From assembly GCA_041660505.1 (NCBI GenBank), contig JBAZWG010000001.1, forward strand, positions 23,758 to 87,757: DNA of 64,000 nt, given 5' to 3'. The stretch's first letter is position 1. Each line of letters begins with the position of its first letter. The stretch comes from Minisyncoccota bacterium. Its GTDB lineage: Bacteria > Patescibacteriota > Minisyncoccia > Phycocordibacterales > JACRKE01. Of this stretch, positions 7,623 to 62,635 are shown piece by piece. Under the pieces are notes generated by a model, which was not told the origin of the DNA, ran no database searches, and saw only the letters and a program-made list of their open reading frames with translations. Made by a program: the position numbers and the translations under genes.

Positions 7623-7653
7623 AAATAGAGAGTTGAACTCTCTGAAATTAAGG
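7623..7653. repeat. REP-like palindrome family 1, copy 1 (core agagagttgaactctct)
   Basis: Perfect 8-1-8 palindrome with conserved trailing aaattaagg. One of 4 copies in the window. Confidence 0.85.
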
Positions 7654-7669
7654 ATAAAATAACTATTAC

Positions 7670-7985: not shown

Positions 7986-8016
7986 AACTAGAGAGTTCAA
8001 CTCTCTATAATAAGGC
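7986..8016. repeat. REP-like palindrome family 1, copy 2 (centre base flipped: agagagttcaactctct)
   Basis: Same element with trailing ataataagg, 32 bp upstream of the transposase start. Confidence 0.85.
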
Positions 8017-8037
8017 TTTTTGTGATAAACTGATTTT

Positions 8038-8664
8038 ATGGACAGGGCACCAATTGAAGAAGACACATTTCATCATGTTTATAACCGTGGCGTTGATAAG
8101 CGAACGATCTTCGAAGACGACGCAGACCATCGAAGATTTATCCTATACCTGAATGTCTTGAATGACACACAGATTGAGAGCCCAAACACCTTTGAGGCGC
8201 TCGAGCGACGACATAAAGATTCACCACTTGGCGAGCGGTTGGTGAATATTTGCGCATTCTGTCTTATGCCTAACCATTTTCATCTATTGCTACACGAGCG
8301 TACACCTGGAGGAATAAGCAAATTTATGCAAAGACTGGGGACAGCATACACACTATATTTCAATGAGAAACATAAACGGAGCGGTGCATTGTTCCAGGGC
8401 AGATACAAAAACCGAATTATTGACGACGAGGAGTACTTGCTCCATGTCATTGATTATATACATTGCAATCCTAATTCAATCGCCGGAGTCGAGGAATATT
8501 TATGGTCCAGCTACCATGATTTTTGCGGAAGCAAAAAGTTTAAACAATTACTGGGAACAGATGTATTATCCGAGTTTACCGAAATTCCAAAGAACTATGC
8601 TTCTTGGTTAAGGTCGCGAGGCAATTTTTCTGAAATAAAGCATATTACGATCGATGAAAGCTAA
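8038..8664 (+). CDS. IS200-like / REP-associated tyrosine transposase (Y1 HUH, RAYT), copy 1
   Basis: HHVYNRG ... NHFHLLLH (HuH) ... GRYKNRIIDDEEYLLHVIDYIHCNP (catalytic Tyr region), about 208 aa. Confidence 0.85.
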   Translation: MDRAPIEEDTFHHVYNRGVDKRTIFEDDADHRRFILYLNVLNDTQIESPNTFEALERRHKDSPLGERLVNICAFCLMPNHFHLLLHERTPGGISKFMQRLGTAYTLYFNEKHKRSGALFQGRYKNRIIDDEEYLLHVIDYIHCNPNSIAGVEEYLWSSYHDFCGSKKFKQLLGTDVLSEFTEIPKNYASWLRSRGNFSEIKHITIDES

Positions 8665-8674
8665 AATATCCTTT

Positions 8675-8705
8675 AAATAGAGAGTTGAACTCTCTAGGAT
8701 AAGGT
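8675..8705. repeat. REP-like palindrome family 1, copy 3
   Basis: aaatagagagttgaactctctaggataagg. Overlaps the stop of the minus-strand DUF218 gene. Confidence 0.85.
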
Positions 8706-9316
8706 TATTTCTCGAGAAAGGTACGTGTGAAGGGCAAGTTAATTTCCAGCCAGGCTTTTATGCTTGCGGCGTACTCCCTTTTGGCATAGGTTGCTTCTGC
8801 TTTAGTGTTGGTTGATGAGGCCGCTATTCCGATCGAGCTTAGCCCGAGATTATTGCAGAGATACAGGGCTCGCGGGAGATGAAACTTTTGGGTTACTAAG
8901 ATAGTATTCTTTATATTATAGACGGTAGCGGCGTTATAACATGAGGCGAAGGTTGAGTTGCCATTATAATCGAGAACAAGTTGGTCTGATTTGGCACCGT
9001 GCGCAAGGGCAAACTTTTTCATCGCGTCGGGCTCGTTGTGGCCAAGGTCAGAGGCGCCGGATAGGAGCAACTTCCCCACCTTACCCTGTTGCAAGAGTTC
9101 TATGCCCTTCACCACTCTTGCTTCGAGCATGTCACGCGGAGTGCCATCGGGCTTGAGCCCTGCGCCGAAGACTAACCCGACGATTGTGCTCGTCGCTAAG
9201 GTATCCTGCATAATGATTTGACTTGCGTATGCGGACTGGACGCGGAAAATCGCCCCGAGTATAATAAGAATGAGTAGCAAGGCAATAAAGCCTAGCAACT
9301 TAATTATCAATTTCAT
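8705..9316 (-). CDS. DUF218 / SanA-YdcF family membrane-anchored protein
   Basis: N-terminal TM, then the GxxPDGTPRDMLEARV...LLLSGASD core typical of DUF218 (SanA/ElyC). Confidence 0.65.
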   Translation of the reverse strand: MKLIIKLLGFIALLLILIILGAIFRVQSAYASQIIMQDTLATSTIVGLVFGAGLKPDGTPRDMLEARVVKGIELLQQGKVGKLLLSGASDLGHNEPDAMKKFALAHGAKSDQLVLDYNGNSTFASCYNAATVYNIKNTILVTQKFHLPRALYLCNNLGLSSIGIAASSTNTKAEATYAKREYAASIKAWLEINLPFTRTFLEK

Positions 9317-9333
9317 TAGTATACTATACCAAT

Positions 9334-10611
9334 ATGAACGCGTATAAGCCAGTAGTCACGAGCGTTGTATCCGGCGTAGTCGGAGCGCTCATCGTGTTTC
9401 TCGGGGGTCTTTGGTTGTTATCGACTAACCCCCTATTGTTTATTAACTTGTTCGGTAACCCAAAATCAGTAAGCGCAACAGCAAGCAGTACGCCGGAGAA
9501 TACAGTAAAAAATATTTTCTCCAAAGAAATATACACTCAAGAATCATTTGTTATCGATACGGTCAAAGCAACAAAGGGTGCCGTGGTATCAATAGTGATA
9601 TCCAAAGACGTACCGGTAATGGAACAGTATTATAGCCAGGTGCCTGGGATTGATCCGAATGATCCATTCGCACAGCTCTTTGGCGGTGGATTTAATTTTC
9701 AGATCCCCCAGCTTCGCCAGAACGGCACTAAACTGCAACAAGTCGGTGCGGGCTCCGGGTTCATTGTTTCGCCAGACGGTCTTATTATTACCAACAAACA
9801 CGTGGTGGCCGACAAGACGGCGGAGTATGCCGTGTTCCTAAACGATGGCAAGAAATATGCGGCGAAGGTTGTCGCTCGAGACCCTGTTAATGATCTCGCC
9901 GTTCTCAAAATTGGGGGGGTAAAATTACCCTATCTCAAATTCGCAAACTCCGACGCCATACAGGTTGGCCAGACCGCTATCGCTATCGGTAATGCGCTCG
10001 GCCAATTCAATAATACGGTCTCGGTTGGCGTTGTGTCGGGCTTAGCTCGCTCGGTCACGGCCGGAAACATGTCGGGCATGTCGGAACAGCTCGATAACGT
10101 TATCCAAACCGACGCGGCGATTAACCCCGGTAACTCCGGCGGGCCGCTCCTAAATCTCGACGGCCGTGTAATCGGCGTGAATGTCGCCGTGGCCCAAGGT
10201 TCGCAAAATATCGGTTTCTCATTACCTGCTAATCTTGCAAAGAGCGTCGTCGATTCGGTACAGAAGAATGCAGGCAAGATAATTCGCCCATACCTTGGGA
10301 TTCGCTACACCGCGGTTACGCCGGAACTTAAAGATGCGAATCATCTGATGGTTGACTATGGTATGCTCGTGCTCCGCGGAAGTTCTAAAGACGAGCTCGC
10401 CGTGGCCCCGGGCTCACCGGCTGACAAAGCCGGTATCCTCGAGAATGACATAATTCTCGAAGCCGACGGCAAGAAATTAACAAGCGACGTCAGCCTGTCT
10501 AATCTGGTTCGTGATCACAAGGTCGGCGACACTATGGCACTCAAGGTATTAAGTAAGGGTACGACCAAGACTGTGAAGATTAAGCTAGAGGCAATCCCGA
10601 CATTGCAGTAA
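9334..10611 (+). CDS. htrA: HtrA/DegP-family trypsin-like serine protease with PDZ domain
   Basis: TNKHVV (His), DLAVLKI (Asp), GNSGGPLLN (Ser) catalytic motifs. C-terminal PDZ. N-terminal TM. Confidence 0.9.
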   Translation: MNAYKPVVTSVVSGVVGALIVFLGGLWLLSTNPLLFINLFGNPKSVSATASSTPENTVKNIFSKEIYTQESFVIDTVKATKGAVVSIVISKDVPVMEQYYSQVPGIDPNDPFAQLFGGGFNFQIPQLRQNGTKLQQVGAGSGFIVSPDGLIITNKHVVADKTAEYAVFLNDGKKYAAKVVARDPVNDLAVLKIGGVKLPYLKFANSDAIQVGQTAIAIGNALGQFNNTVSVGVVSGLARSVTAGNMSGMSEQLDNVIQTDAAINPGNSGGPLLNLDGRVIGVNVAVAQGSQNIGFSLPANLAKSVVDSVQKNAGKIIRPYLGIRYTAVTPELKDANHLMVDYGMLVLRGSSKDELAVAPGSPADKAGILENDIILEADGKKLTSDVSLSNLVRDHKVGDTMALKVLSKGTTKTVKIKLEAIPTLQ

Positions 10612-10668
10612 AACACAAGACCGCCTTCTGCGAATTTCGAGAAGGCGGTCTTGTGTTTTTGATTTTGT
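10612..10668 (+). terminator. Strong intrinsic terminator (18-bp perfect stem)
   Basis: aacacaagaccgccttct...agaaggcggtcttgtgtt followed by tttgattttg. Sits between convergent genes. Confidence 0.8.
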
Positions 10669-12869: not shown

Positions 12870-14110
12870 TAATTCAACAGTCTTTTGGCCTTCTGGTGGT
12901 AGCGAATTTTTTCGTGAGCTTTGGCTTCTATTTGGCGGATGCGTTCGCGGGTAACGCCGAACTCTTTGCCGACTTCTTCGAGTGTACGCATGACGCCGTC
13001 TATGAGACCATGGCGCATTTCTAATATCTTGCGCTCTTTGGGGGTCAGGTCGTTCAGAATTTCTTTGATTTGGTCGGCTAGGATACGGCGCGAACTTTCT
13101 TGATCGGGAGAAAGAATTTTATCATCGGCGATGAACTCGCCCAGAGTTGACTTATCGTCGCTCGAGTCTCCTATCGGCGTTTCCAGCGAAACAGTGCTCT
13201 GGTCTATCTTTTCTATATTATAAACCTTCTCAACCTCGATACCCATCTCTATTGCAATTTCCTCCGGCAACGGATCGCGCCCCAAGTCTTGCGAGAGTCT
13301 GCGCACTACTTGCTTATACTTCGCAATAGTCTCTACCATATGCACGGGTATGCGGATTGTGCGCGATTGGTCAGCCAAGGCGCGAGTAATTGCTTGGCGA
13401 ATCCACCAAGTGGCATAAGTTGAAAATTTATAACCCTTAGACCAGTCGAATTTCTCTACGGCTTTGAAAAGGCCAAGATTTCCTTCTTGAATTAAGTCTA
13501 AAAGGGTCAAATCAGAACTACGGCCAACGTATTTCTTCGCAATAGAAACCACGAGACGCAAATTGGCTTTTACCAGAATGTCCGACGCCTCACGCTCGCC
13601 GAGCGCTATGCGCTTCGATAGTTCACGCTCTTCGGCGGCAGAAATAAGACGATACTGGCCGATCTCGCGCAAGTACATCTGCACAGAATCCGGCATCGAG
13701 CCTTCGCGTCCTTTACTCACTCGTGCGTGGGCGATATCCTGCTCAAGTTGCTCGTCAAGAAGTCCGCCACCTTCTAATACATCAATATTCGCTTCGTCGA
13801 ATTTCTCGTACAACTCATCCAAAAATAGAATATCATTCTCGATAGTCGGAAACTCTTTTAAGATCTCATTATAGGTGACGAAGCCTCGCGACTTGGCCTT
13901 CTCGATAAGCAGATTAATCTTGCGAGCCTGAAGACCGCTCTCTTTCTTAGCAACTATCGCTGTCCCGCCCCTCGGCTTGGTCTTTGCCTTCTGCTTTACA
14001 ACCTTCTTCTGCTTATTTTTGGCAACAGACTTTTTCGCTTTAGGTGCGTGCTTCTTCTTTACTATCTTGTGCGTTTTCTGCGCCTTCTTTTTTTTATTTT
14101 TCATTTTCAT
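12866..14110 (-). CDS. rpoD: RNA polymerase sigma-70 factor RpoD
   Basis: Region 2 [13 protein letters not shown], region 4 helix-turn-helix ([11 protein letters not shown]), Lys-rich N-terminus. Confidence 0.95.
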
Positions 14111-23932: not shown

Positions 23933-24068
23933 GATACTCCAGAGCAAAAATATAACAAGTTGATAACAAAAAACCGCCCGGAGGCGGCTTCTTGGTTCCA
24001 GAGGTTGAACCTTTCCTACCCCCGGCAGGCGCGGTTGATGCTTAAGGTTCAACTTCTTCCAGTCTTTA

Positions 24069-42628: not shown

Positions 42629-42997
42629 ATGAAAATAAAGGTTCTTGGTTATGGGCCTGCGGACCTGCTTGAGCAAATCTTAAAGCAGGAATGGTCACCG
42701 TGTAATGATGGTGGTCAAAATTTCACGTCCATCACTGTCAAGAGCGGAGAGCTCAAGGCCTGCTTCTCAGTGCCTCGAGGCAAGGAGGAATTCATTCACA
42801 CTGCTCTGTTCTTGGTACGCGTGGGACGCAAGAGAGGCGTGTCCGTTCGTAACGCATTCGTCACGCTTACATTCTTCGACTTGCTGTGCAAGAGCGGGAG
42901 AAGGGCTCTCTTGCTCAATGGCAACCGCCTAGTGGAGAGACCTTCTGGGAAGAAACCTGTGCGCTACTGCGCCACCTTTACCTTCGAAAACACGTAG
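42629..42997 (+). CDS. Hypothetical protein (122 aa), GC-rich orphan
   Basis: SD aaaggag 5 nt upstream of the ATG. Overlaps the ddl 3' end in another frame. Followed by terminator-like element A. Confidence 0.5.
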   Translation: MKIKVLGYGPADLLEQILKQEWSPCNDGGQNFTSITVKSGELKACFSVPRGKEEFIHTALFLVRVGRKRGVSVRNAFVTLTFFDLLCKSGRRALLLNGNRLVERPSGKKPVRYCATFTFENT

Positions 42998-43005
42998 CTC
43001 CTGCC

Positions 43006-43058
43006 AAGCTGCCGGAAAGTTGCTGTAACCGCACTTCCCGGCAGCTTTTCGTTTTATA
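43006..43058 (+). terminator. Terminator-like conserved element, copy A (diverged)
   Basis: aagctgccgg...ccggcagctt 10-bp stem plus ttcgtttt. Loop sequence related to the 53-bp elements at 48666 and 49397. Confidence 0.6.
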
Positions 43059-43085
43059 AGCTAGCACACAAGACTACCTTGTGTG

Positions 43086-43769
43086 CTACCAGCCAAGTTT
43101 ATCGAGGGCGCTTCGCGCGGCGTCTTGCTCCGCTTCTTGTTTGGACGGGCCTTTGCCTTTTGTAATCAGATCCGGGCCAAGGAAGACGCCTACGGTAAAG
43201 ACTTTGTCATGGTCGGGACCTTCTTCGCCCACCACTTCGTAGCGCGGGGTGACACTGCGTTTTTCTTGTGACACTTCTTGCAGAGCACTCTTTGCGTCAC
43301 GCCACAACTTCTTTTTTACTATCTCATCGGTTTTTGGAATTAAAGTACGGGCGATAAAGTCCTTGGCTACAGCATAACCTTGATCAAGATATATAGCGCC
43401 AATGATTGCCTCATAGGCGTTGGCCAATATCGACTGGCGTGCGCGTCCGGTATCTTTGGCTTCACCCTTAGACATTAGCAAGAACTTCTGAACGTCGAGC
43501 GATGACGAAATCTGAGAAATACTCACTGTATTCACCAACGCCGCTCTATATGCTGTGAGCTCGCCCTCCCACACTTTGGGGTATTTGTGATAGAGATATT
43601 CCGTCACCACTAATTCTAAAACTGCATCGCCAAGAAATTCAAGCCGTTCATTGTGCGAAAGCTGGAAGCTGGGATTCTCATTTAAATATGACCGATGCGT
43701 CAAAGCCTGCTGGATATATTCTCTATTTTGGAACTGTACGCCGATGGTCTTTTCGAATTTTTCTAGCAT
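43086..43769 (-). CDS. rnc: Ribonuclease III
   Basis: ERLEFLGDAVLELVVTEYLY signature. C-terminal dsRBD. Confidence 0.95.
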   Translation of the reverse strand: MLEKFEKTIGVQFQNREYIQQALTHRSYLNENPSFQLSHNERLEFLGDAVLELVVTEYLYHKYPKVWEGELTAYRAALVNTVSISQISSSLDVQKFLLMSKGEAKDTGRARQSILANAYEAIIGAIYLDQGYAVAKDFIARTLIPKTDEIVKKKLWRDAKSALQEVSQEKRSVTPRYEVVGEEGPDHDKVFTVGVFLGPDLITKGKGPSKQEAEQDAARSALDKLGW

Positions 43770-43837
43770 AAAATTATTTTGTCTTAGAAGGCGAGGCCTT
43801 GAGCATCTAGAAGGCCTCGCCTTCTAATTCCTAGTCA

Positions 43838-44758: not shown

Positions 44759-44806
44759 GTCGAAATTTATTGTACCCCAGAATTCAAAAAGGTTCAAGCA
44801 AAACAA

Positions 44807-44842
44807 GAGGTTCGACCTTTTAGATGCTCAAGGTCGAACCTC
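44807..44842 (-). terminator. Palindromic terminator family gaggttcgacctt / aaggtcgaacctc (copy 1), downstream of rpmF
   Basis: 13-bp perfect stem with A-run on the plus strand upstream (U-run for the minus transcript). Near-identical copy at 60067-60102. Confidence 0.65.
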
Positions 44843-44860
44843 TAAACGTGAGTGGAAAAA

Positions 44861-48388: not shown

Positions 48389-48435
48389 TAAATACTATTG
48401 TAGCTTGTCGAAAGAAGCGGGAAGAGTGAGTTGTC

Positions 48436-48654
48436 ATGGCAAATCTATTCGGAGCCGTGTCGATGATTCTACTGGGAATTTCCGGTTTCGCTGCTGGAGT
48501 TTCGGTCATGGACCATGCTGGTGGTGCTGAATTTATCAACGCAATCAGCAGCCGTGCATGGTTCTGGGAGGTGATAACGCTAACGTTTTTCATCATGGGC
48601 GCGTTCCTGCATGTAATCGCCCTCAACGAGATGTTGAAACCTCGTGGGCGATAG
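48436..48654 (+). CDS. Small membrane protein (hypothetical, 72 aa)
   Basis: Two TM segments. Immediately followed by the 53-bp terminator-like element B. Confidence 0.4.
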   Translation: MANLFGAVSMILLGISGFAAGVSVMDHAGGAEFINAISSRAWFWEVITLTFFIMGAFLHVIALNEMLKPRGR

Positions 48655-48665
48655 CTCTTTTCATA

Positions 48666-48718
48666 GCTGCCGGAGGAAGTTGTCTTAACACCGCTTCCAA
48701 GGGCAGCTTTCTTCGTTT
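48666..48718 (+). terminator. 53-bp terminator-like element B (identical to C)
   Basis: agctgccggaggaagttgtcttaacaccgcttccaagggcagctttcttcgtt. Nested stems agctgcc/ggcagct and ggaag/cttcc, then a U-rich tail. Confidence 0.65.
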
Positions 48719-48726
48719 ATATTAAT

Positions 48727-48757
48727 ACTTAGAGAGCTGAACTCTCTAAAATAGGGG
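48727..48757. repeat. REP-like palindrome family 1, copy 4 (agagagctgaactctct, one mismatch)
   Basis: Same element and trailing aaaatagg context as the copies at 7.6-8.7 kb, 40 kb away. Confidence 0.8.
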
Positions 48758-48849
48758 TTTTTGCAGATTGCATTTGCTTGATGCGCAAGTTGTGTGTCTT
48801 GAAATCTTTTCCACTTCCTAAACCTTCAGTTCAGAGCTAAAATAACTGA

Positions 48850-49119
48850 ATGAAAACCGAGGACCTGGCAGTCATGATAAAAAAGCAATTCGACGTTATG
48901 GGTATGCAACTCAGAAATATTGATTATGGGATAGAAAAACTTGAGGTCAAGAACGACAACCTCGAGAACCAATTGACACAGGTTCGAGCCGATCTAACGA
49001 AAGTAAAACAGGATGTTGAGTTCATCCGTGAAAACAATGTGTTTAAAATCGAACACGAGGACTTACGGTCGCGCGTAGGAAAGATTGAATCGAAACTCAA
49101 GCTTCGTTTGAAGGTTTAG
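48850..49119 (+). CDS. Small coiled-coil protein, paralog of 23666..23932
   Basis: 89 aa, heptad-rich. Shared KVKQDVEFIRENN / HEDLRSRVGKIESK blocks. Confidence 0.5.
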   Translation: MKTEDLAVMIKKQFDVMGMQLRNIDYGIEKLEVKNDNLENQLTQVRADLTKVKQDVEFIRENNVFKIEHEDLRSRVGKIESKLKLRLKV

Positions 49120-49224
49120 CTCGCTGAATCTCCCACCCCAAAAAGTTTAGGGACTATTTCAGCTTGACGAATAACATATTTTATATTAATTTCATTGTTA
49201 ATGATGTAGGGATAGGAGGTGAAC

Positions 49225-49380
49225 ATGATCTGTGTAGTGAAGGTGAATTATCCCAAATGCAAGAAGTGTGGCTGTGATACAGAGCGCACCGGAGGATGGC
49301 GAGGCGATGTTGGTCTCGATTACCTTCGATGTACAAAGTGCGGCCACAAACAAACTAGCCGGGTTTATACCTGGCGATGA
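49225..49380 (+). CDS. Zinc-ribbon mini-protein (51 aa), unannotated
   Basis: MICVVKVNYPKCKKCGCDTERTGGWRGDVGLDYLRCTKCGHKQTSRVYTWR with CxxC...CxxC. SD ggaggt upstream. Followed by element C. Confidence 0.35.
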   Translation: MICVVKVNYPKCKKCGCDTERTGGWRGDVGLDYLRCTKCGHKQTSRVYTWR

Positions 49381-49396
49381 CCGTGTTGCAGCACCA

Positions 49397-49449
49397 AGCT
49401 GCCGGAGGAAGTTGTCTTAACACCGCTTCCAAGGGCAGCTTTCTTCGTT
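49397..49449 (+). terminator. 53-bp terminator-like element C (identical to B)
   Basis: Exact 53-bp repeat of 48666-48718. Confidence 0.65.
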
Positions 49450-49471
49450 AGACCTTATTATTAGCCAAGTT

Positions 49472-49490
49472 ATCAACACCGAGTGTTGAT
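49472..49490. repeat. Palindrome family 2 (atcaacac-cga-gtgttgat), 5' copy
   Basis: 8-bp perfect arms with a 3-nt loop, about 22 bp upstream of the second transposase ATG. Confidence 0.8.
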
Positions 49491-49512
49491 ATTTCGTGAT
49501 ATACTCTCAAGT

Positions 49513-50193
49513 ATGAGAGTTATTGAAATTTGCGAGGATGAGTACTACCATGTTTTGAATCGAGGAATTAATAAGCAAAAAATCTTTCTTGATGATCGAG
49601 ACCGTGCTCGGTTTTTATTTCTTATCTTGTTTTTGCAGTCTCCTGCCCTGGTAAATAATATGAGTGATTTCGCCGCGAGATTTACAGATCTTATTCTTGC
49701 TGATGAATACAACATACTTGCGGTGAAAGAACTAGATGAACTTTGGAATAAAATGAAGGAGTCGAGGTGTGTGGAGCTCCTGGCGTTTGCACTTATGGGG
49801 AACCACTTTCATATCGCCGTTCATGCACTCAAGGATTCAGGAATAGCAACCTATTTGCAACGAGTGCAGAACGCGTATACAAAATACTTTAATATAAAAC
49901 ACGATCGGACGGGACATTTATTCCAGGGACCATACAAAGTCGTACACCAACCAGACGACGAACGTCTCATGATGCTTACTGCGTATATCCACCATAACCC
50001 GAATGAGGTTTTAGATAGTAGAGCTGAAGTTGAAGCATTCAAATGGTCTAGCTACCAGGATTACCACAACAATAATCGCTGGGGCGAGTTATTAAAGCCA
50101 GAAATAGTACTCGAACAATTTTCCAATCCCGCGGAATACCTAGAATTCGTTAACGATGGCAACGTAAAATCAACACCGAGTGTTGATAAATAG
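49513..50193 (+). CDS. IS200-like / REP-associated tyrosine transposase (Y1 HUH), copy 2
   Basis: YYHVLNRG ... GNHFHIAVH (HuH) ... GPYKVVHQPDDERLMMLTAYIHHNP (Tyr region). Diverged from copy 1. Confidence 0.85.
   Translation: MRVIEICEDEYYHVLNRGINKQKIFLDDRDRARFLFLILFLQSPALVNNMSDFAARFTDLILADEYNILAVKELDELWNKMKESRCVELLAFALMGNHFHIAVHALKDSGIATYLQRVQNAYTKYFNIKHDRTGHLFQGPYKVVHQPDDERLMMLTAYIHHNPNEVLDSRAEVEAFKWSSYQDYHNNNRWGELLKPEIVLEQFSNPAEYLEFVNDGNVKSTPSVDK
50169..50187. repeat. Palindrome family 2, 3' copy (inside the last codons of the transposase)
   Basis: Identical atcaacaccgagtgttgat. Confidence 0.8.
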
Positions 50194-50277
50194 AGCTTGC
50201 AAAGGGCTATGTCGGTGCTAGACTTTATACAGCCCTGCTCTTTTCGAACGATGAGAGCATGATTGTAGGAGGTCAGC

Positions 50278-50550
50278 TTGAGCCAGATGTTCGAATATCA
50301 CGAGGTCATCGAGACTCTTGCCCGACAAAGCCGGAAGATCTCGAAAGAAATTCCGTTGGAGGACCAACGGGCTGTGCTCTCGGCAATTTCTAGGTTCGAG
50401 ACCGTTCATGGCCGTGGTGCAGTGCTCGACGTTATCTGTGCCGCATCGCGAGCCGGCAAGTTGCACGAATGCCTGAAAGCGCTCGACGCAGTGACAGACT
50501 CACCCTCGTTGCTAAACGATGTTTGTCGGCAACTGGGACTCGTTCGATGA
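50278..50550 (+). CDS. Hypothetical protein (90 aa), GC-rich orphan; TTG start
   Basis: SD gtaggaggt 9 nt upstream. High GC relative to flanks. Confidence 0.4.
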   Translation: MSQMFEYHEVIETLARQSRKISKEIPLEDQRAVLSAISRFETVHGRGAVLDVICAASRAGKLHECLKALDAVTDSPSLLNDVCRQLGLVR

Positions 50551-50692
50551 TTATCTTGGCAGGTTAAGGGGGAGCCTGTCGAAAGTACAAATCCCCCAAC
50601 CCACAAAGAACGCGTCCATGTGACGTGTTTTTTGTTTCTATTTGTCTATATATAGATATCTGCTATTATGGTGTGACACTAATTTAAATACT

Positions 50693-52438
50693 ATGGAACC
50701 AGAAAAATTGCAGAACATTCGCCATACGCTTGCTCACCTTATGGCACAGGCTGTTAAGGAGCTCTATCCGAACGCACAACTTACGCTTGGCCCGGCTATT
50801 GATACGGGGTTTTATTATGACATTGACTTTGGTGCCGACAAATTATCGGACGCTGATCTACCGAAAATAGAGAAACTGATGCGCAAGAACCTCCAGAATT
50901 GGAAAGAATTCACTCATCAAGAAGTAGACGAGGCGGGTGCAGAAAAAGCTTTTGCCGGTAATCAGTACAAACTTGAACTGGTTAAAGAAATTTCTGAACG
51001 CGGGGAGAAGATCACCCTATACACCTGCGGTAATTTTACAGACCTTTGCCGTGGCGGACACGCAGAAAATCCGTCCAAGGATATTGCACCGGACTCGTTC
51101 AAACTCGATCGTATTGCCGGGGCCTATTGGCGCGGAAGCGAGAAGAACCCTATGCTCACCAGAATCTACGGTCTGGCCTTCGAGTCAAAACCAGCGCTAG
51201 ACATGCATCTCACAATGCTCGAAGAGGCCAAAAAACGCGACCATCGTAAACTCGGCAAAGAACTGGAACTGTTTATGATCGCCGACGAAGTCGGTCCAGG
51301 TTTACCGATGTTCTACCCGAAAGGCGCAATTTTACGCCGACTTATCGAGAACTACATTATTGAAGAACAAGAGGCAAGGGGCTACGTTCCCATCTGGATT
51401 CCACATATTACAAAGGGCAAGCTCTATGAAATTTCCGGCCATTTGTCGAAATACGATGCGATGTACAATCCAATGCACATTGACGACGACGACTATTACC
51501 TTAAGCCGATGAATTGCCCGCACTTCATGATGCTCTATAAGTCACTCCCGCATTCATACAAAGAACTCCCATTACGATACACTTGTACTACTACAAATTA
51601 CCGCTATGAGAAGTCCGGCGAGCTCTCTGGCCTCACGCGCGTGCGAGCCCTCACACAAGACGACTGTCATGTGTTCTGTATGCCGGACCAGATTGAGAAT
51701 GAAATTAAGCTGATGCTCGAGATGATCGGCAACGCATATCATGTCTTCAAAATTACCGACTTCTGGGTGCGCATTTCACTTAGAGATTCTAAGGATAAAT
51801 CAAAGTACCTTGGCGACGACGATGTTTGGAATAAAGCGGAAGACGCCTTACGCAAGGTAGTGAAGGCATCCGGCTGGAAATATAAAGAAGCGGAGAATGA
51901 AGCGGCCTTCTATGGTCCCAAGCTTGACTTCATGATGAAGGATGCTATCGGCCGTGAGTGGCAAATCTCCACAATCCAACTCGACTTCAACCTGCCTAAG
52001 CGTTTCGAGCTGGAATATACCTCTAACACTGGCACAAAAGAACAACCCGTGGTGATTCACAGAGCAATCCTTGGCTCTACAGAGCGTTTTATGGGAGTAC
52101 TCATAGAGCACCTAGCCGGTAACTTCCCCACTTGGCTCTCGCCGATACAGGTTGCCATATTGCCAATCTCCGATAAGCATTTGGAATATTCAAAAAAGGT
52201 CGCCGAGAGCCTCCGAGCTTCTGGTGTCCGTGTGGAGCTTAATGAAGATAACGATACTTTGGGCAAGAAGATACGCAATGCGAAAGGTACAAAAGTGCCT
52301 TACATGCTAGTCATCGGCGATGCGGAGGTTAACGACAAAACTATTACGGTAGAGCATCGTGACAAAGGTAAGGTCGGCGCACAATCCGTCGCCGAATTCA
52401 TTGCGAATATTACTGACGAAATTAAAAATCGTAATTAA
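50693..52438 (+). CDS. thrS: Threonyl-tRNA synthetase (lacks N-terminal TGS domain)
   Basis: Editing-domain start IRHTLAHLMAQAV...GFYYDIDFG. Class II motifs. Anticodon-binding C-terminus. Confidence 0.95.
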   Translation: MEPEKLQNIRHTLAHLMAQAVKELYPNAQLTLGPAIDTGFYYDIDFGADKLSDADLPKIEKLMRKNLQNWKEFTHQEVDEAGAEKAFAGNQYKLELVKEISERGEKITLYTCGNFTDLCRGGHAENPSKDIAPDSFKLDRIAGAYWRGSEKNPMLTRIYGLAFESKPALDMHLTMLEEAKKRDHRKLGKELELFMIADEVGPGLPMFYPKGAILRRLIENYIIEEQEARGYVPIWIPHITKGKLYEISGHLSKYDAMYNPMHIDDDDYYLKPMNCPHFMMLYKSLPHSYKELPLRYTCTTTNYRYEKSGELSGLTRVRALTQDDCHVFCMPDQIENEIKLMLEMIGNAYHVFKITDFWVRISLRDSKDKSKYLGDDDVWNKAEDALRKVVKASGWKYKEAENEAAFYGPKLDFMMKDAIGREWQISTIQLDFNLPKRFELEYTSNTGTKEQPVVIHRAILGSTERFMGVLIEHLAGNFPTWLSPIQVAILPISDKHLEYSKKVAESLRASGVRVELNEDNDTLGKKIRNAKGTKVPYMLVIGDAEVNDKTITVEHRDKGKVGAQSVAEFIANITDEIKNRN

Positions 52439-59954: not shown

Positions 59955-60066
59955 AGGTTACAACATATTAACACGTTTCAATCTTTTAGACATCCGGTGT
60001 TGCTAAAATTGAGCCTGTAAAGAGTATGGGATGGAATATACTTGCCATGTTTTTGTAAACAAAAAA

Positions 60067-60102
60067 GAGGTTCGACCTTTTGGATGCCTAAGGTCGAACC
60101 TC
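60067..60102 (-). terminator. Palindromic terminator family gaggttcgacctt (copy 2), downstream of the DUF5679 gene
   Basis: Same 13-bp stem as 44807-44842. A-run on the plus-strand 5' side. Confidence 0.65.
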
Positions 60103-60131
60103 TGGATTCTGTCTACTAAGTAACAGCTCTG

Positions 60132-62309: not shown

Positions 62310-62374
62310 TCACACGACGAGGTGACCACGGCAACGGGGCAGGCCGGTAATTCTGCCCCTAACTACAAAAAACA

Positions 62375-62635
62375 CTATTCTGGATTATGAATAGTGTTTT
62401 TTGTTTTCAAGCTCAATTTTTCCTTGCGGGATAATTTTTTAATTTCCGCTTCGCGCTTAGATGCCGATGACCTATCCGGATGCTTTTCATTATACACCAT
62501 CTTACTCGCTCCGTGAGCGCGCGTGTATTGCCCACCGATTCCCTTCTTGTGCTCATTAAGACGCCGCGCAAGGTCGGTCGTGATGCCGGTGTAGATAGAC
62601 TTGTCGGCGCACTGGAGTAGGTAGACGAAGTACAT
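62375..62635 (-). CDS. GIY-YIG nuclease family protein (UPF0213-like)
   Basis: YFVYLLQCADKSIYTGITTDLARRLNEHK canonical GIY-YIG motif. Confidence 0.9.
   Translation of the reverse strand: MYFVYLLQCADKSIYTGITTDLARRLNEHKKGIGGQYTRAHGASKMVYNEKHPDRSSASKREAEIKKLSRKEKLSLKTKNTIHNPE

Follow-up and report, generated by a model that had tools for sequence, protein, structure and literature searches.

We describe here a 53-nucleotide (nt) element, hereafter the 53-mer, in a 64,000-nt stretch of the genome of a Minisyncoccota bacterium (contig JBAZWG010000001.1), which we refer to as the window; the window is also part of the 719-kb contig JGI 3300037810 Ga0376277_0000057, and its NCBI counterpart is a Candidatus Paceibacterota metagenome-assembled genome. 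The 53-mer, a nested hairpin followed by a T-rich tail, is found twice in the window, accompanied by a diverged third copy (V3), each of them just after a small open reading frame (ORF). Our preferred reading, to which we give a probability of about 55%, is that the 53-mer belongs to a family of intrinsic terminators, and that recombination or duplication at the hairpin has propagated this family as the junction sequence of small ORFan cassettes. The three copies are as follows.

48665-48717, + strand: 53-mer copy 1; outer stem AGCTGCC/GGCAGCT, 3x3 purine internal loop, inner stem GGAAGT/GCTTCC, 12-nt apex, tail TTTCTTCGTT
49397-49449, + strand: 53-mer copy 2; 100% identical to copy 1
43006-43055, + strand: V3, diverged third copy; outer stem extended to 10 bp, tail TTTTCGTTTT

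The 53-mer, its relatives and its fold

The exact repeat reported in an earlier note on this DNA is real, with the sequence AGCTGCCGGAGGAAGTTGTCTTAACACCGCTTCCAAGGGCAGCTTTCTTCGTT present on the + strand at both positions, the first copy lying 1 nt to the left of the 48666-48718 given in that note. Identity between the two copies is confined to exactly 53 nt, beyond which the flanks are unrelated, and none of 100 dinucleotide shuffles contained a match to the 53-mer. As RNA, all copies have an outer stem of 7-10 bp, an inner stem of 5-6 bp (GGAAG/CUUCC) and a 12-nt apex, with the all-purine 3x3 internal loop present in the two identical copies; the predicted energies of -21.9 to -23.7 kcal/mol (z -3.4 to -5.5) bear out the nested hairpin and U-tail that had been proposed for all three. 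Directly 3' of the stem is UUUCUUCGUU or UUUUCGUUUU, the first 10 nt after the stem containing 7 T residues in the 53-mer and 8 in V3. The reverse strand of the copies also folds, without a T-tract, and other good terminators in the window are built in like manner from a hairpin and a T-tail. Each window copy begins 8-16 nt 3' of the stop codon of a small + strand ORF; with the copy from a second genome described below, 4 of the 4 known copies are co-oriented with such an ORF, the gaps from stop codon to element being 10, 16, 8 and 0 nt.

V3 has the outer stem, AAGTTG, the TAAC of the apex, CTTCC and the tail in common with the 53-mer, and two 2-nt deletions remove the internal loop. Three observations argue that V3 is homologous to the 53-mer rather than convergent: 1) the 24-base pattern common to both occurs at 16 loci in 596 Gb of reference genomes, amounting to ~2e-6 occurrences expected in 64 kb; 2) the similarity of the V3 interior to the 53-mer was matched by only 4 of 5000 shuffles; 3) the covariance model R1, built from the copies, gave V3 64.9 bits vs. 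at most 33 bits for generic terminators with the same stem, a score which is inflated because V3 belonged to the model seed. Once the 24 bases are given, unrelated terminators of other phyla reach nearly equal overall identity (40-41 of ~53 positions), and the case for homology is therefore one of co-occurrence in a single window and not of alignment score. With this reservation, the diverged third copy claimed at this place in the earlier note holds. A link between V3 and terminators in the islet of a related genome, L043 (common CCGGAAA..GTAACCGC), was considered and dismissed, as the paired positions differ.

Six related genomes were fetched via their dnaE homologues (dnaE amino-acid identity 69-85%). 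BLAST of the element against these related loci yielded one real further copy, at 7947-8000 of L035, a Paceibacterota contig. This copy is 50/53 identical to the 53-mer, the differences being TCT to CAC in the apex and a change in the outermost pair. It starts directly after the stop codon of a 53-amino-acid (aa) membrane ORF. Like the 72-aa ORF of the window, this ORF is the gene next to dnaE on the downstream side, yet the two have no similarity. Between the window and L035, dnaE is 74% identical at the DNA level and other genes 68-76%, no other intergenic DNA can be aligned, and at other places in the operon the orthologous intergenic hairpins have given way to different sequences. We take the copy at the orthologous L035 spot, retained despite 74% dnaE DNA identity, to mean that the copies are related by descent, in keeping with the earlier proposal that they are not independent terminators, and we infer from the 94% cross-species identity a recent exchange or, possibly, an additional layer of selection.

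The four instances scored 65-86 bits with model R1, compared with at most 33 bits for generic terminators selected by pattern. With filters off, R1 returned nothing beyond the three copies in the window and, in ~210 kb of related loci, nothing other than the L035 copy; around dnaE, the element is absent from 5 of the 6 relatives, including L032, and present only in L035. Pattern scans of the 596 Gb of reference genomes and of JGI metagenomes found no homologues. What they returned were single terminators of a generic type, AAAGCTGCCGGAAG...CTTCCGGCAGCTTTT, from unrelated phyla (Lachnospiraceae, Bacteroidota, Herminiimonas and others), and the interior of the 53-mer is missing from all of them; a scan of viral contigs for the conserved interior gave 0 matches. 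The pattern used for contig scanning, AGCTGCCGGAN{12,32}CTTCCN{0,3}GGCAGCTTT, was too strict at base 1, missing the L035 copy, which has G there. The copies in the 64 kb number three, lie within 6.5 kb of one another and have a single orientation; ~165 kb from relatives contain none apart from that in L035, and the genome, metagenome and viral scans gave no homologues. The suggestion of a mobile 3' untranslated-region (UTR) element in the sense of a dispersed repeat thus found no support.

Small ORFs, a variable islet and bracketing repeats

The genes and segments adjoining the copies are listed here.

48436-48654, + strand: 72-aa predicted membrane (transmembrane) ORF, 10 nt before copy 1; no family match
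48718-49396, + strand: segment X, 679 bp between the identical copies, with a REP-like palindrome, an 89-aa coiled-coil ORF (48850-49119) and the 51-aa ORF
49225-49380, + strand: 51-aa CxxC..CxxC ORF with a strong GGAGG ribosome-binding site, 16 nt before copy 2; near-orphan
42629-42997, + strand: 122-aa ORFan between ddl and rnc, 8 nt before V3
43062-43088, no strand assigned: perfect 11-bp hairpin TAGCACACAAG-actac-CTTGTGTGCTA after V3, overlapping the stop codon of the convergent rnc
48389-50641, + strand: hypervariable islet between dnaE and thrS, with a different gene content in every relative examined

The earlier note held that each copy comes directly after a small orphan gene. A small ORF is indeed there in 3/3 cases, and these ORFs are mutually unrelated and have no convincing match in Pfam or NCBIfam; orphan status varies. 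Among 5.8 billion proteins the 122-aa ORF, in a neighbourhood with a G+C fraction of 0.53-0.54, matched only itself and is an orphan in the full sense. The 51-aa ORF, which is not called as a gene by JGI, is a near-orphan with two marginal matches (E 1.5e-4 and 4.2e-4) among 1.84 billion representatives. For the 72-aa ORF an exact-sequence look-up gave no record, no homologue search having been made.

The two identical copies (A) bracket segment X in an A-X-A arrangement, and the G+C fraction of X is 0.40-0.42 vs. ~0.50 in the flanking dnaE/ORF72 region. Direct repeats that bracket single accessory or ORFan genes recur in the relatives, as evidenced by: 1) 97%-identical terminators after two consecutive genes in L039 (3068/3540); 2) 88%-identical terminators after two ORFans in the dnaE-thrS gap of L043 itself, and, also in L043, a 172-aa ORFan flanked on either side by the same 24 nt from the rnhB 3' end, without a mismatch (repeat pairs at 13771/14547 and 8495/9162); 3) a 57-nt repeat around a Trp-repressor-like gene in L048 (14956/15651); 4) a 101-nt repeat around a Phd/PemK pair in L041 (16048/16896). 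These bracketing repeats measure 24-101 nt with 85-100% identity, some of them being terminators and some the 3' ends of neighbouring genes. Footprints of this kind suggest that insertions have occurred repeatedly in Paceibacterota, by a process that leaves long duplications on the flanks. That like footprints are made of unrelated sequences speaks for a general mode of insertion: a small gene enters at the end of another gene, and the sequence found there, often the terminator, comes to lie on both sides of it. The same observation argues against a special role for the sequence of the 53-mer.

The gene order around the islet is largely kept (smc-(ddl)-rnc-nusB/NUDIX-rpmF-dnaE-[gap]-thrS) in the two closest relatives; the more distant L036, L039, L041 and L043 have rnhB and other genes between rpmF and dnaE, and the order dnaE-[gap]-thrS is kept in all six. 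The content of the gap, 0 to 5 ORFs, is unlike in all 7 genomes (the window and the six relatives), as listed here.

Window: 72-, 89- and 51-aa ORFs and a RayT-like gene
L032: 168-aa ORF and a NUDIX gene
L035: 53- and 59-aa ORFs
L036: 285-aa ORF
L039: 357-aa ORF
L041: empty
L043: 123-, 63- and 210-aa ORFs

At the other element-bearing place, L032, the closest relative by dnaE (85% aa identity), has a ddl-rnc spacing of 44 bp and lacks both the 122-aa ORF and V3. This difference, together with the variability of the dnaE-thrS gap, identifies both places as insertion spots; comparison of the islet with known phages and plasmids found no similarity. The notion of a cassette boundary, one of those raised in the earlier note, gives the best fit to the A-X-A arrangement around a 679-bp low-GC segment, the variable dnaE-thrS gap and the analogous bracketing repeats in relatives.

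Separately, we noticed that a two-hairpin leader (ACAACAA..CCCTAAGGGGAGTTTTGTG.. then GGCTCCC..GGGGAGTTTTTCTGTTATT) is conserved upstream of thrS in three relatives (L032 14590-14700, L035 8195-8300, L036 5840-5930); the window carries a different sequence at 50560-50640, and no T-box or other such Rfam match was found in the window.

According to our preferred reading, the 53-mer would be a Rho-independent terminator module, a two-tier GC-rich hairpin followed by UUUCUUCGUU, that ends small accessory genes in variable spots. The ancestral copy would have stood after the first small gene downstream of dnaE, where L035 may have retained it, and in the source genome a 679-bp segment with two genes would then have become bracketed by identical copies. 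Two routes can be envisaged: an incoming cassette may have recombined at the terminator or carried the same terminator, or the terminator may have been duplicated during insertion; we presume that one such recombination or duplication event lies behind the A-X-A arrangement. An empty site devoid of X would be expected to read ORF72-A-AGACCTTATT. An older event of like kind would have put the 122-aa ORFan and its now-diverged copy between ddl and rnc. The primary role of the 53-mer would thus be that of a terminator; in second place it would offer a portable junction, or patch of homology, through which cassettes are gained and lost.

Several points weigh against this reading. Actual termination at the 53-mer is something that we infer from its sequence, and for copy 2 in its own context (49387-49457) the minimum free energy (MFE) structure, at -27.3 kcal/mol, is an alternative fold in which CGGAGGAAGUUGUCUU pairs with AGGGCAGCUUUCUUCG, the U-tract is sequestered and a 5-bp hairpin takes up the 5' arm. 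Copy 2 has its 3' spacer in common with L035 and copy 1 the TAGRRRG palindrome that follows it, so that neither a copy-1-ancestral nor a copy-2-ancestral scheme fits all flanks. Selection for structure only would not be expected to keep a terminator at 94% identity, in internal loop and apex as well, where other intergenic hairpins have been replaced, which points to recent exchange or an added sequence-specific role. Finally, the copy count covers 64 kb of the 719-kb source contig.

Two further likenesses were examined and set aside. Upstream of two of the ORFs lies a repeat, CTTGACGAATAA, that resembles a promoter; its occurrence does not exceed chance (an estimated ~2 exact 12-mer repeats per 9 kb), and it is partly dnaE coding sequence. 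The likeness of AGCCAAGTT(T)ATC after copy 2 and V3 was dismissed, its second instance being rnc coding sequence.

RayT-like genes, structured RNA and other explanations

The window also encodes RayT-like transposases, and the relevant features are listed here.

49513-50193, + strand: RayT-like Y1 (HUH) transposase gene, 64 nt downstream of copy 2; context only
49471-49491, no strand assigned: palindrome TATCAACAC-cga-GTGTTGATA, 22 nt after copy 2; left flanking hairpin of that gene
50169-50188: right flanking hairpin of that gene
48729-48749, no strand assigned: palindrome TTAGAGAG-ctgaa-CTCTCTAA, 12 nt after copy 1; TAGAGAGTTSAACTCTCTA family
7626-7658, 7989-8021 and 8678-8710: TAGAGAGTTSAACTCTCTA palindromes, with a dispersed copy at 48730-48762, 40 kb away and beside copy 1

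One alternative, which we regard as unlikely, is that the 53-mer is a non-autonomous mobile hairpin resembling REP elements or miniature inverted-repeat transposable elements (MITEs), moved as single-stranded DNA by a RayT-like Y1 (HUH) transposase and landing at gene ends by happenstance. The setting is suggestive in this regard. Two RayT-like proteins, 35% identical to each other, are encoded at 8038-8664 and 49513-50193; both match Pfam Y1_Tnp, with REP-associated tyrosine transposase as the best NCBIfam model, below its cut-off, and a structural model of the 49513-50193 protein (pLDDT 86.9) has as its best PDB match 4ER8, the E. coli TnpA-REP (E 4e-5, TM 0.68), ranking ahead of the ISDra2 and IS608 transposases. 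Each gene has its own flanking palindrome. The TAGAGAGTTSAACTCTCTA family follows three consecutive small genes around the gene at 8038-8664, the family being dispersed as far as copy 1, and its L035 version (8014-8032) reads TAGAAGGTTCAACCTTCTA, with compensatory changes in both arms; the hairpins around the gene at 49513-50193 are ATCAACAC-CGA-GTGTTGAT, at ~49472 and 50169. Every 53-mer copy is followed by a palindrome within 8-22 nt, and the element itself has discrete edges and is 94% conserved across species, as a mobile hairpin might be. In likeness to REP/BIME elements, REPINs and RAYT transposases (Bertels & Rainey 2011, PMC3116915; Bertels et al. 2017, PMC5581495; structure 4ER8), we are dealing with an extragenic imperfect palindrome at gene 3' ends, in a genome with single-copy RayT-like genes and their cognate hairpins, copy 2 lying in the 5' flank of one such gene.

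What counts most against this alternative are the homologous loci. The gene at 49513-50193 has at least 188 homologues, at most 54% identical, from Patescibacteria and typically single-copy. The genes of this Patescibacteria-wide family have hairpins on both sides, as seen in L046 (3230-3260, 3947-3977) and L048 (9938-9988, 10637-10661), with the same apex, (A)CAC-CGA/TCG-GTG(T), and with lower stems that differ between genomes and stay self-complementary. These loci keep their CAC-CGA-GTG hairpins, which differ in sequence from the 53-mer, and have neither a 53-mer-like element nor a match to R1, so that the RayT-like gene is not part of the element, and the idea of the 53-mer as the left end of a RayT-like unit was rejected. 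In addition, unlike REP elements, all four known copies of the 53-mer have one fixed orientation directly after stop codons, with no inverted doublets and no GTAG foot; in the 64-kb window the copies number three, confined to 6.5 kb, and no high copy number is seen there. Nor is there a target-site duplication of the kind expected of a MITE (flanks TCAT/../TATA, ACCA/../AGAC and CGCC/../ATAA), although the stem could pass as terminal inverted repeats, and the sole sequence in common with the RayT hairpin is the 7-mer AACACCG, with an estimated chance probability of ~0.08. The missing 53-mer at homologous loci, the fixed orientation and the lack of doublets and GTAG foot together lead us to treat the adjacency as co-accumulation in plastic intergenic DNA.

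Independent of the 53-mer, several observations on hairpins and RayT-like genes may be recorded. In L048, a RayT-like gene also abuts the 3' end of dnaE, and our literature search found no paper linking REP/RAYT systems to Patescibacteria. A hairpin family whose arm is the self-palindrome AGGTTSAACCT (or GGTTCGACC) and whose loop measures ~10 nt (TTRGRTGCYY) is present in several genomes in both orientations, in the intergenic gaps of the rpmF-nusB-rnc operon as well as elsewhere. A GC-rich hairpin repeat, CCCTCCCC(TGGCCA)GGGGAGGG, has multiple copies in related genomes and none in the window. Long perfect hairpins with 20-bp and 16-bp stems and A-tracts/T-tracts on either side, at 10610-10659 and 62365-62404 of the window, are probably bidirectional terminators. 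The sites of the two families are listed here.

AGGTTSAACCT family, window: 44806-44843, 60066-60103, 43784-43827, 24002-24055 and 36210
AGGTTSAACCT family, relatives: L035 3042-3088; L032 8635; L039 2984-3020
CCCTCCCC(TGGCCA)GGGGAGGG repeat: L041 2087-2129, 4513-4633, 5521-5567, 19763-19922 and 22293-22516; L035 8040-8135

It is likewise improbable, in our estimation, that the 53-mer is a functional structured RNA or protein-binding 3' element, e.g. a small RNA (sRNA) derived from a 3' UTR or a stabiliser with a specific partner, whose sequence itself is under purifying selection. The 50/53 identity with L035 speaks for such a role, as it takes in the GGA/AAG internal loop, which is unpaired, and the greater part of the apex while neighbouring DNA is saturated, and so does the apex UG...UAAC, which is common to all three variants. 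V3, on the other hand, is devoid of the internal loop, and compensatory changes number zero, though among four sequences only (three distinct elements), the two one-sided changes (A-U to G-U, U-G to U-A) retaining pairing, so that the covariation count carries no weight either way. At the gathering score Rfam found only tRNAs in the window, and at E<=10 nothing meaningful (18.2 bits to Sso133 and 12.8 bits to a long non-coding RNA model), hence no family match. A conserved RNA gene should moreover be present in relatives, whereas this element is missing in 5 of the 6 sampled around dnaE, L032 among them, and it is attached to three or four unrelated ORFs. The proposal of a shared structured RNA has thus gained no positive evidence.

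We give still less weight to a dedicated site-specific recombination site, attC-like or an att core, that a recombinase would use to insert and remove small gene cassettes. Such a site would account for the exact 53-bp direct repeats of the A-X-A arrangement, the variable host locus and the recurrence of direct-repeat-bracketed accessory genes in relatives. As in integron attC and chromosomal cassette arrays (e.g. Vibrio VCRs), the small, mostly orphan and promoter-poor ORFs are co-directional, each followed by a near-identical imperfect palindrome. In contrast to attC, the 53-mer ends AAGCTGCC...GGCAGCTT without R''/R' core sites (RYYYAAC...GTTRRRY), GTTAGAC occurring after copy 2 only; it has a symmetric internal loop in place of attC-type extrahelical bases; only two or three units are seen; and no integrase or recombinase domain is present among the called genes within +/-10 kb. 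At 53 nt, it would also be at or below the length of the shortest attC. On the missing core sites and integrase, the integron attC interpretation was rejected. As to other dedicated sites, the bracketing repeats of the relatives are unrelated sequences that include coding 3' ends, and they point to a sequence-independent process instead.

Chance resemblance, or an assembly artefact joining unrelated DNA at a common k-mer, is hardly credible: unrelated bacteria do carry terminators with the same outer stem AGCTGCCGGAAG...CTTCCGGCAGCTTTT, but against this stand the exact 53/53 identity with 0/100 shuffles matching, the rarity of the shared pattern (16 loci per 596 Gb), the homologous copy in a separate JGI metagenome, and a Logan contig from an independent run (SRR18595301) that matches 49420-51260 at 100% identity. 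This contig begins 30 nt short of the copy 2 end, where a k=31 graph would be expected to break on meeting a repeat, and it shows that the repeat is not peculiar to one assembly.

Known systems and biological meaning

Compared with known systems, the 53-mer resembles intrinsic terminators in having a GC-rich stem-loop followed by a U-rich tract, in lying a few nt after a stop codon in co-orientation with the gene, and in carrying its T-tract on a single strand. Ordinary terminators lack sequence conservation, whereas the loops, 3x3 internal loop and tail seen here are identical within the genome and 94% identical across species. In function, the nearest analogue is the promoter-early stem-loops (PeSLs) of T4-like phages, conserved terminator/promoter motifs that border ORFans in hyperplastic regions (Arbiol et al. 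2010, PMC2839356; Comeau et al. 2014, PMC4122927). Recombination at PeSLs shuffles, inserts and deletes single-gene modules and can release mini-circles; PeSLs are composite, with a strong sigma-70 promoter, and number ~50 per phage genome (PMC2839356, PMC4122927). Common to both are a terminator stem-loop at ORFan borders in a variable region and the A-X-A arrangement, which is the residue expected of PeSL-type recombination. The differences are that only 3 copies are seen here, in the chromosome of cellular Patescibacteria, and that mini-circles are a feature of PeSLs; a promoter-like site was found neither inside the 53-mer nor in common to the sequence after it. With the conserved promoter part missing and the chromosome being a cellular one, the likeness to PeSLs is one of mode of action, not of membership. 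As to REP/RAYT (PMC5581495) and attC, the 53-mer lacks their defining features wherever these could be tested.

A more far-reaching idea, and one that we hold to be a long shot, is that Paceibacterota possess a hairpin-guided cassette mechanism for single small genes, functionally integron- or PeSL-like, in which terminator or REP-like hairpins would act as joining sites, possibly processed as single-stranded DNA by RayT-like HUH enzymes, and would leave direct repeats of 24-100 nt flanking the insert as a footprint. A defined mechanism of cassette exchange in the candidate phyla radiation, perhaps tied to the widespread RayT-like enzymes, would be the larger prize, and our data do no more than hint at it.

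On its own, the 53-mer is a tidy but fairly ordinary feature, to which the conserved copy in a second species adds beyond the original observation; the more promising leads are the recurrent direct-repeat footprints and the Patescibacteria RayT-like genes with their cognate hairpins. In practical terms, a duplicated terminator or a short direct repeat around a gene of 0.5-0.8 kb could serve as a marker of cassette junctions. If the 53-mer is indeed a terminator propagated as a cassette junction, it would exemplify how the streamlined genomes of Patescibacteria gain orphan genes: insertion would take place at hairpins that mark gene ends, in a small number of plastic gaps separating core genes, with the terminator carried or copied along so that each new gene would be insulated.

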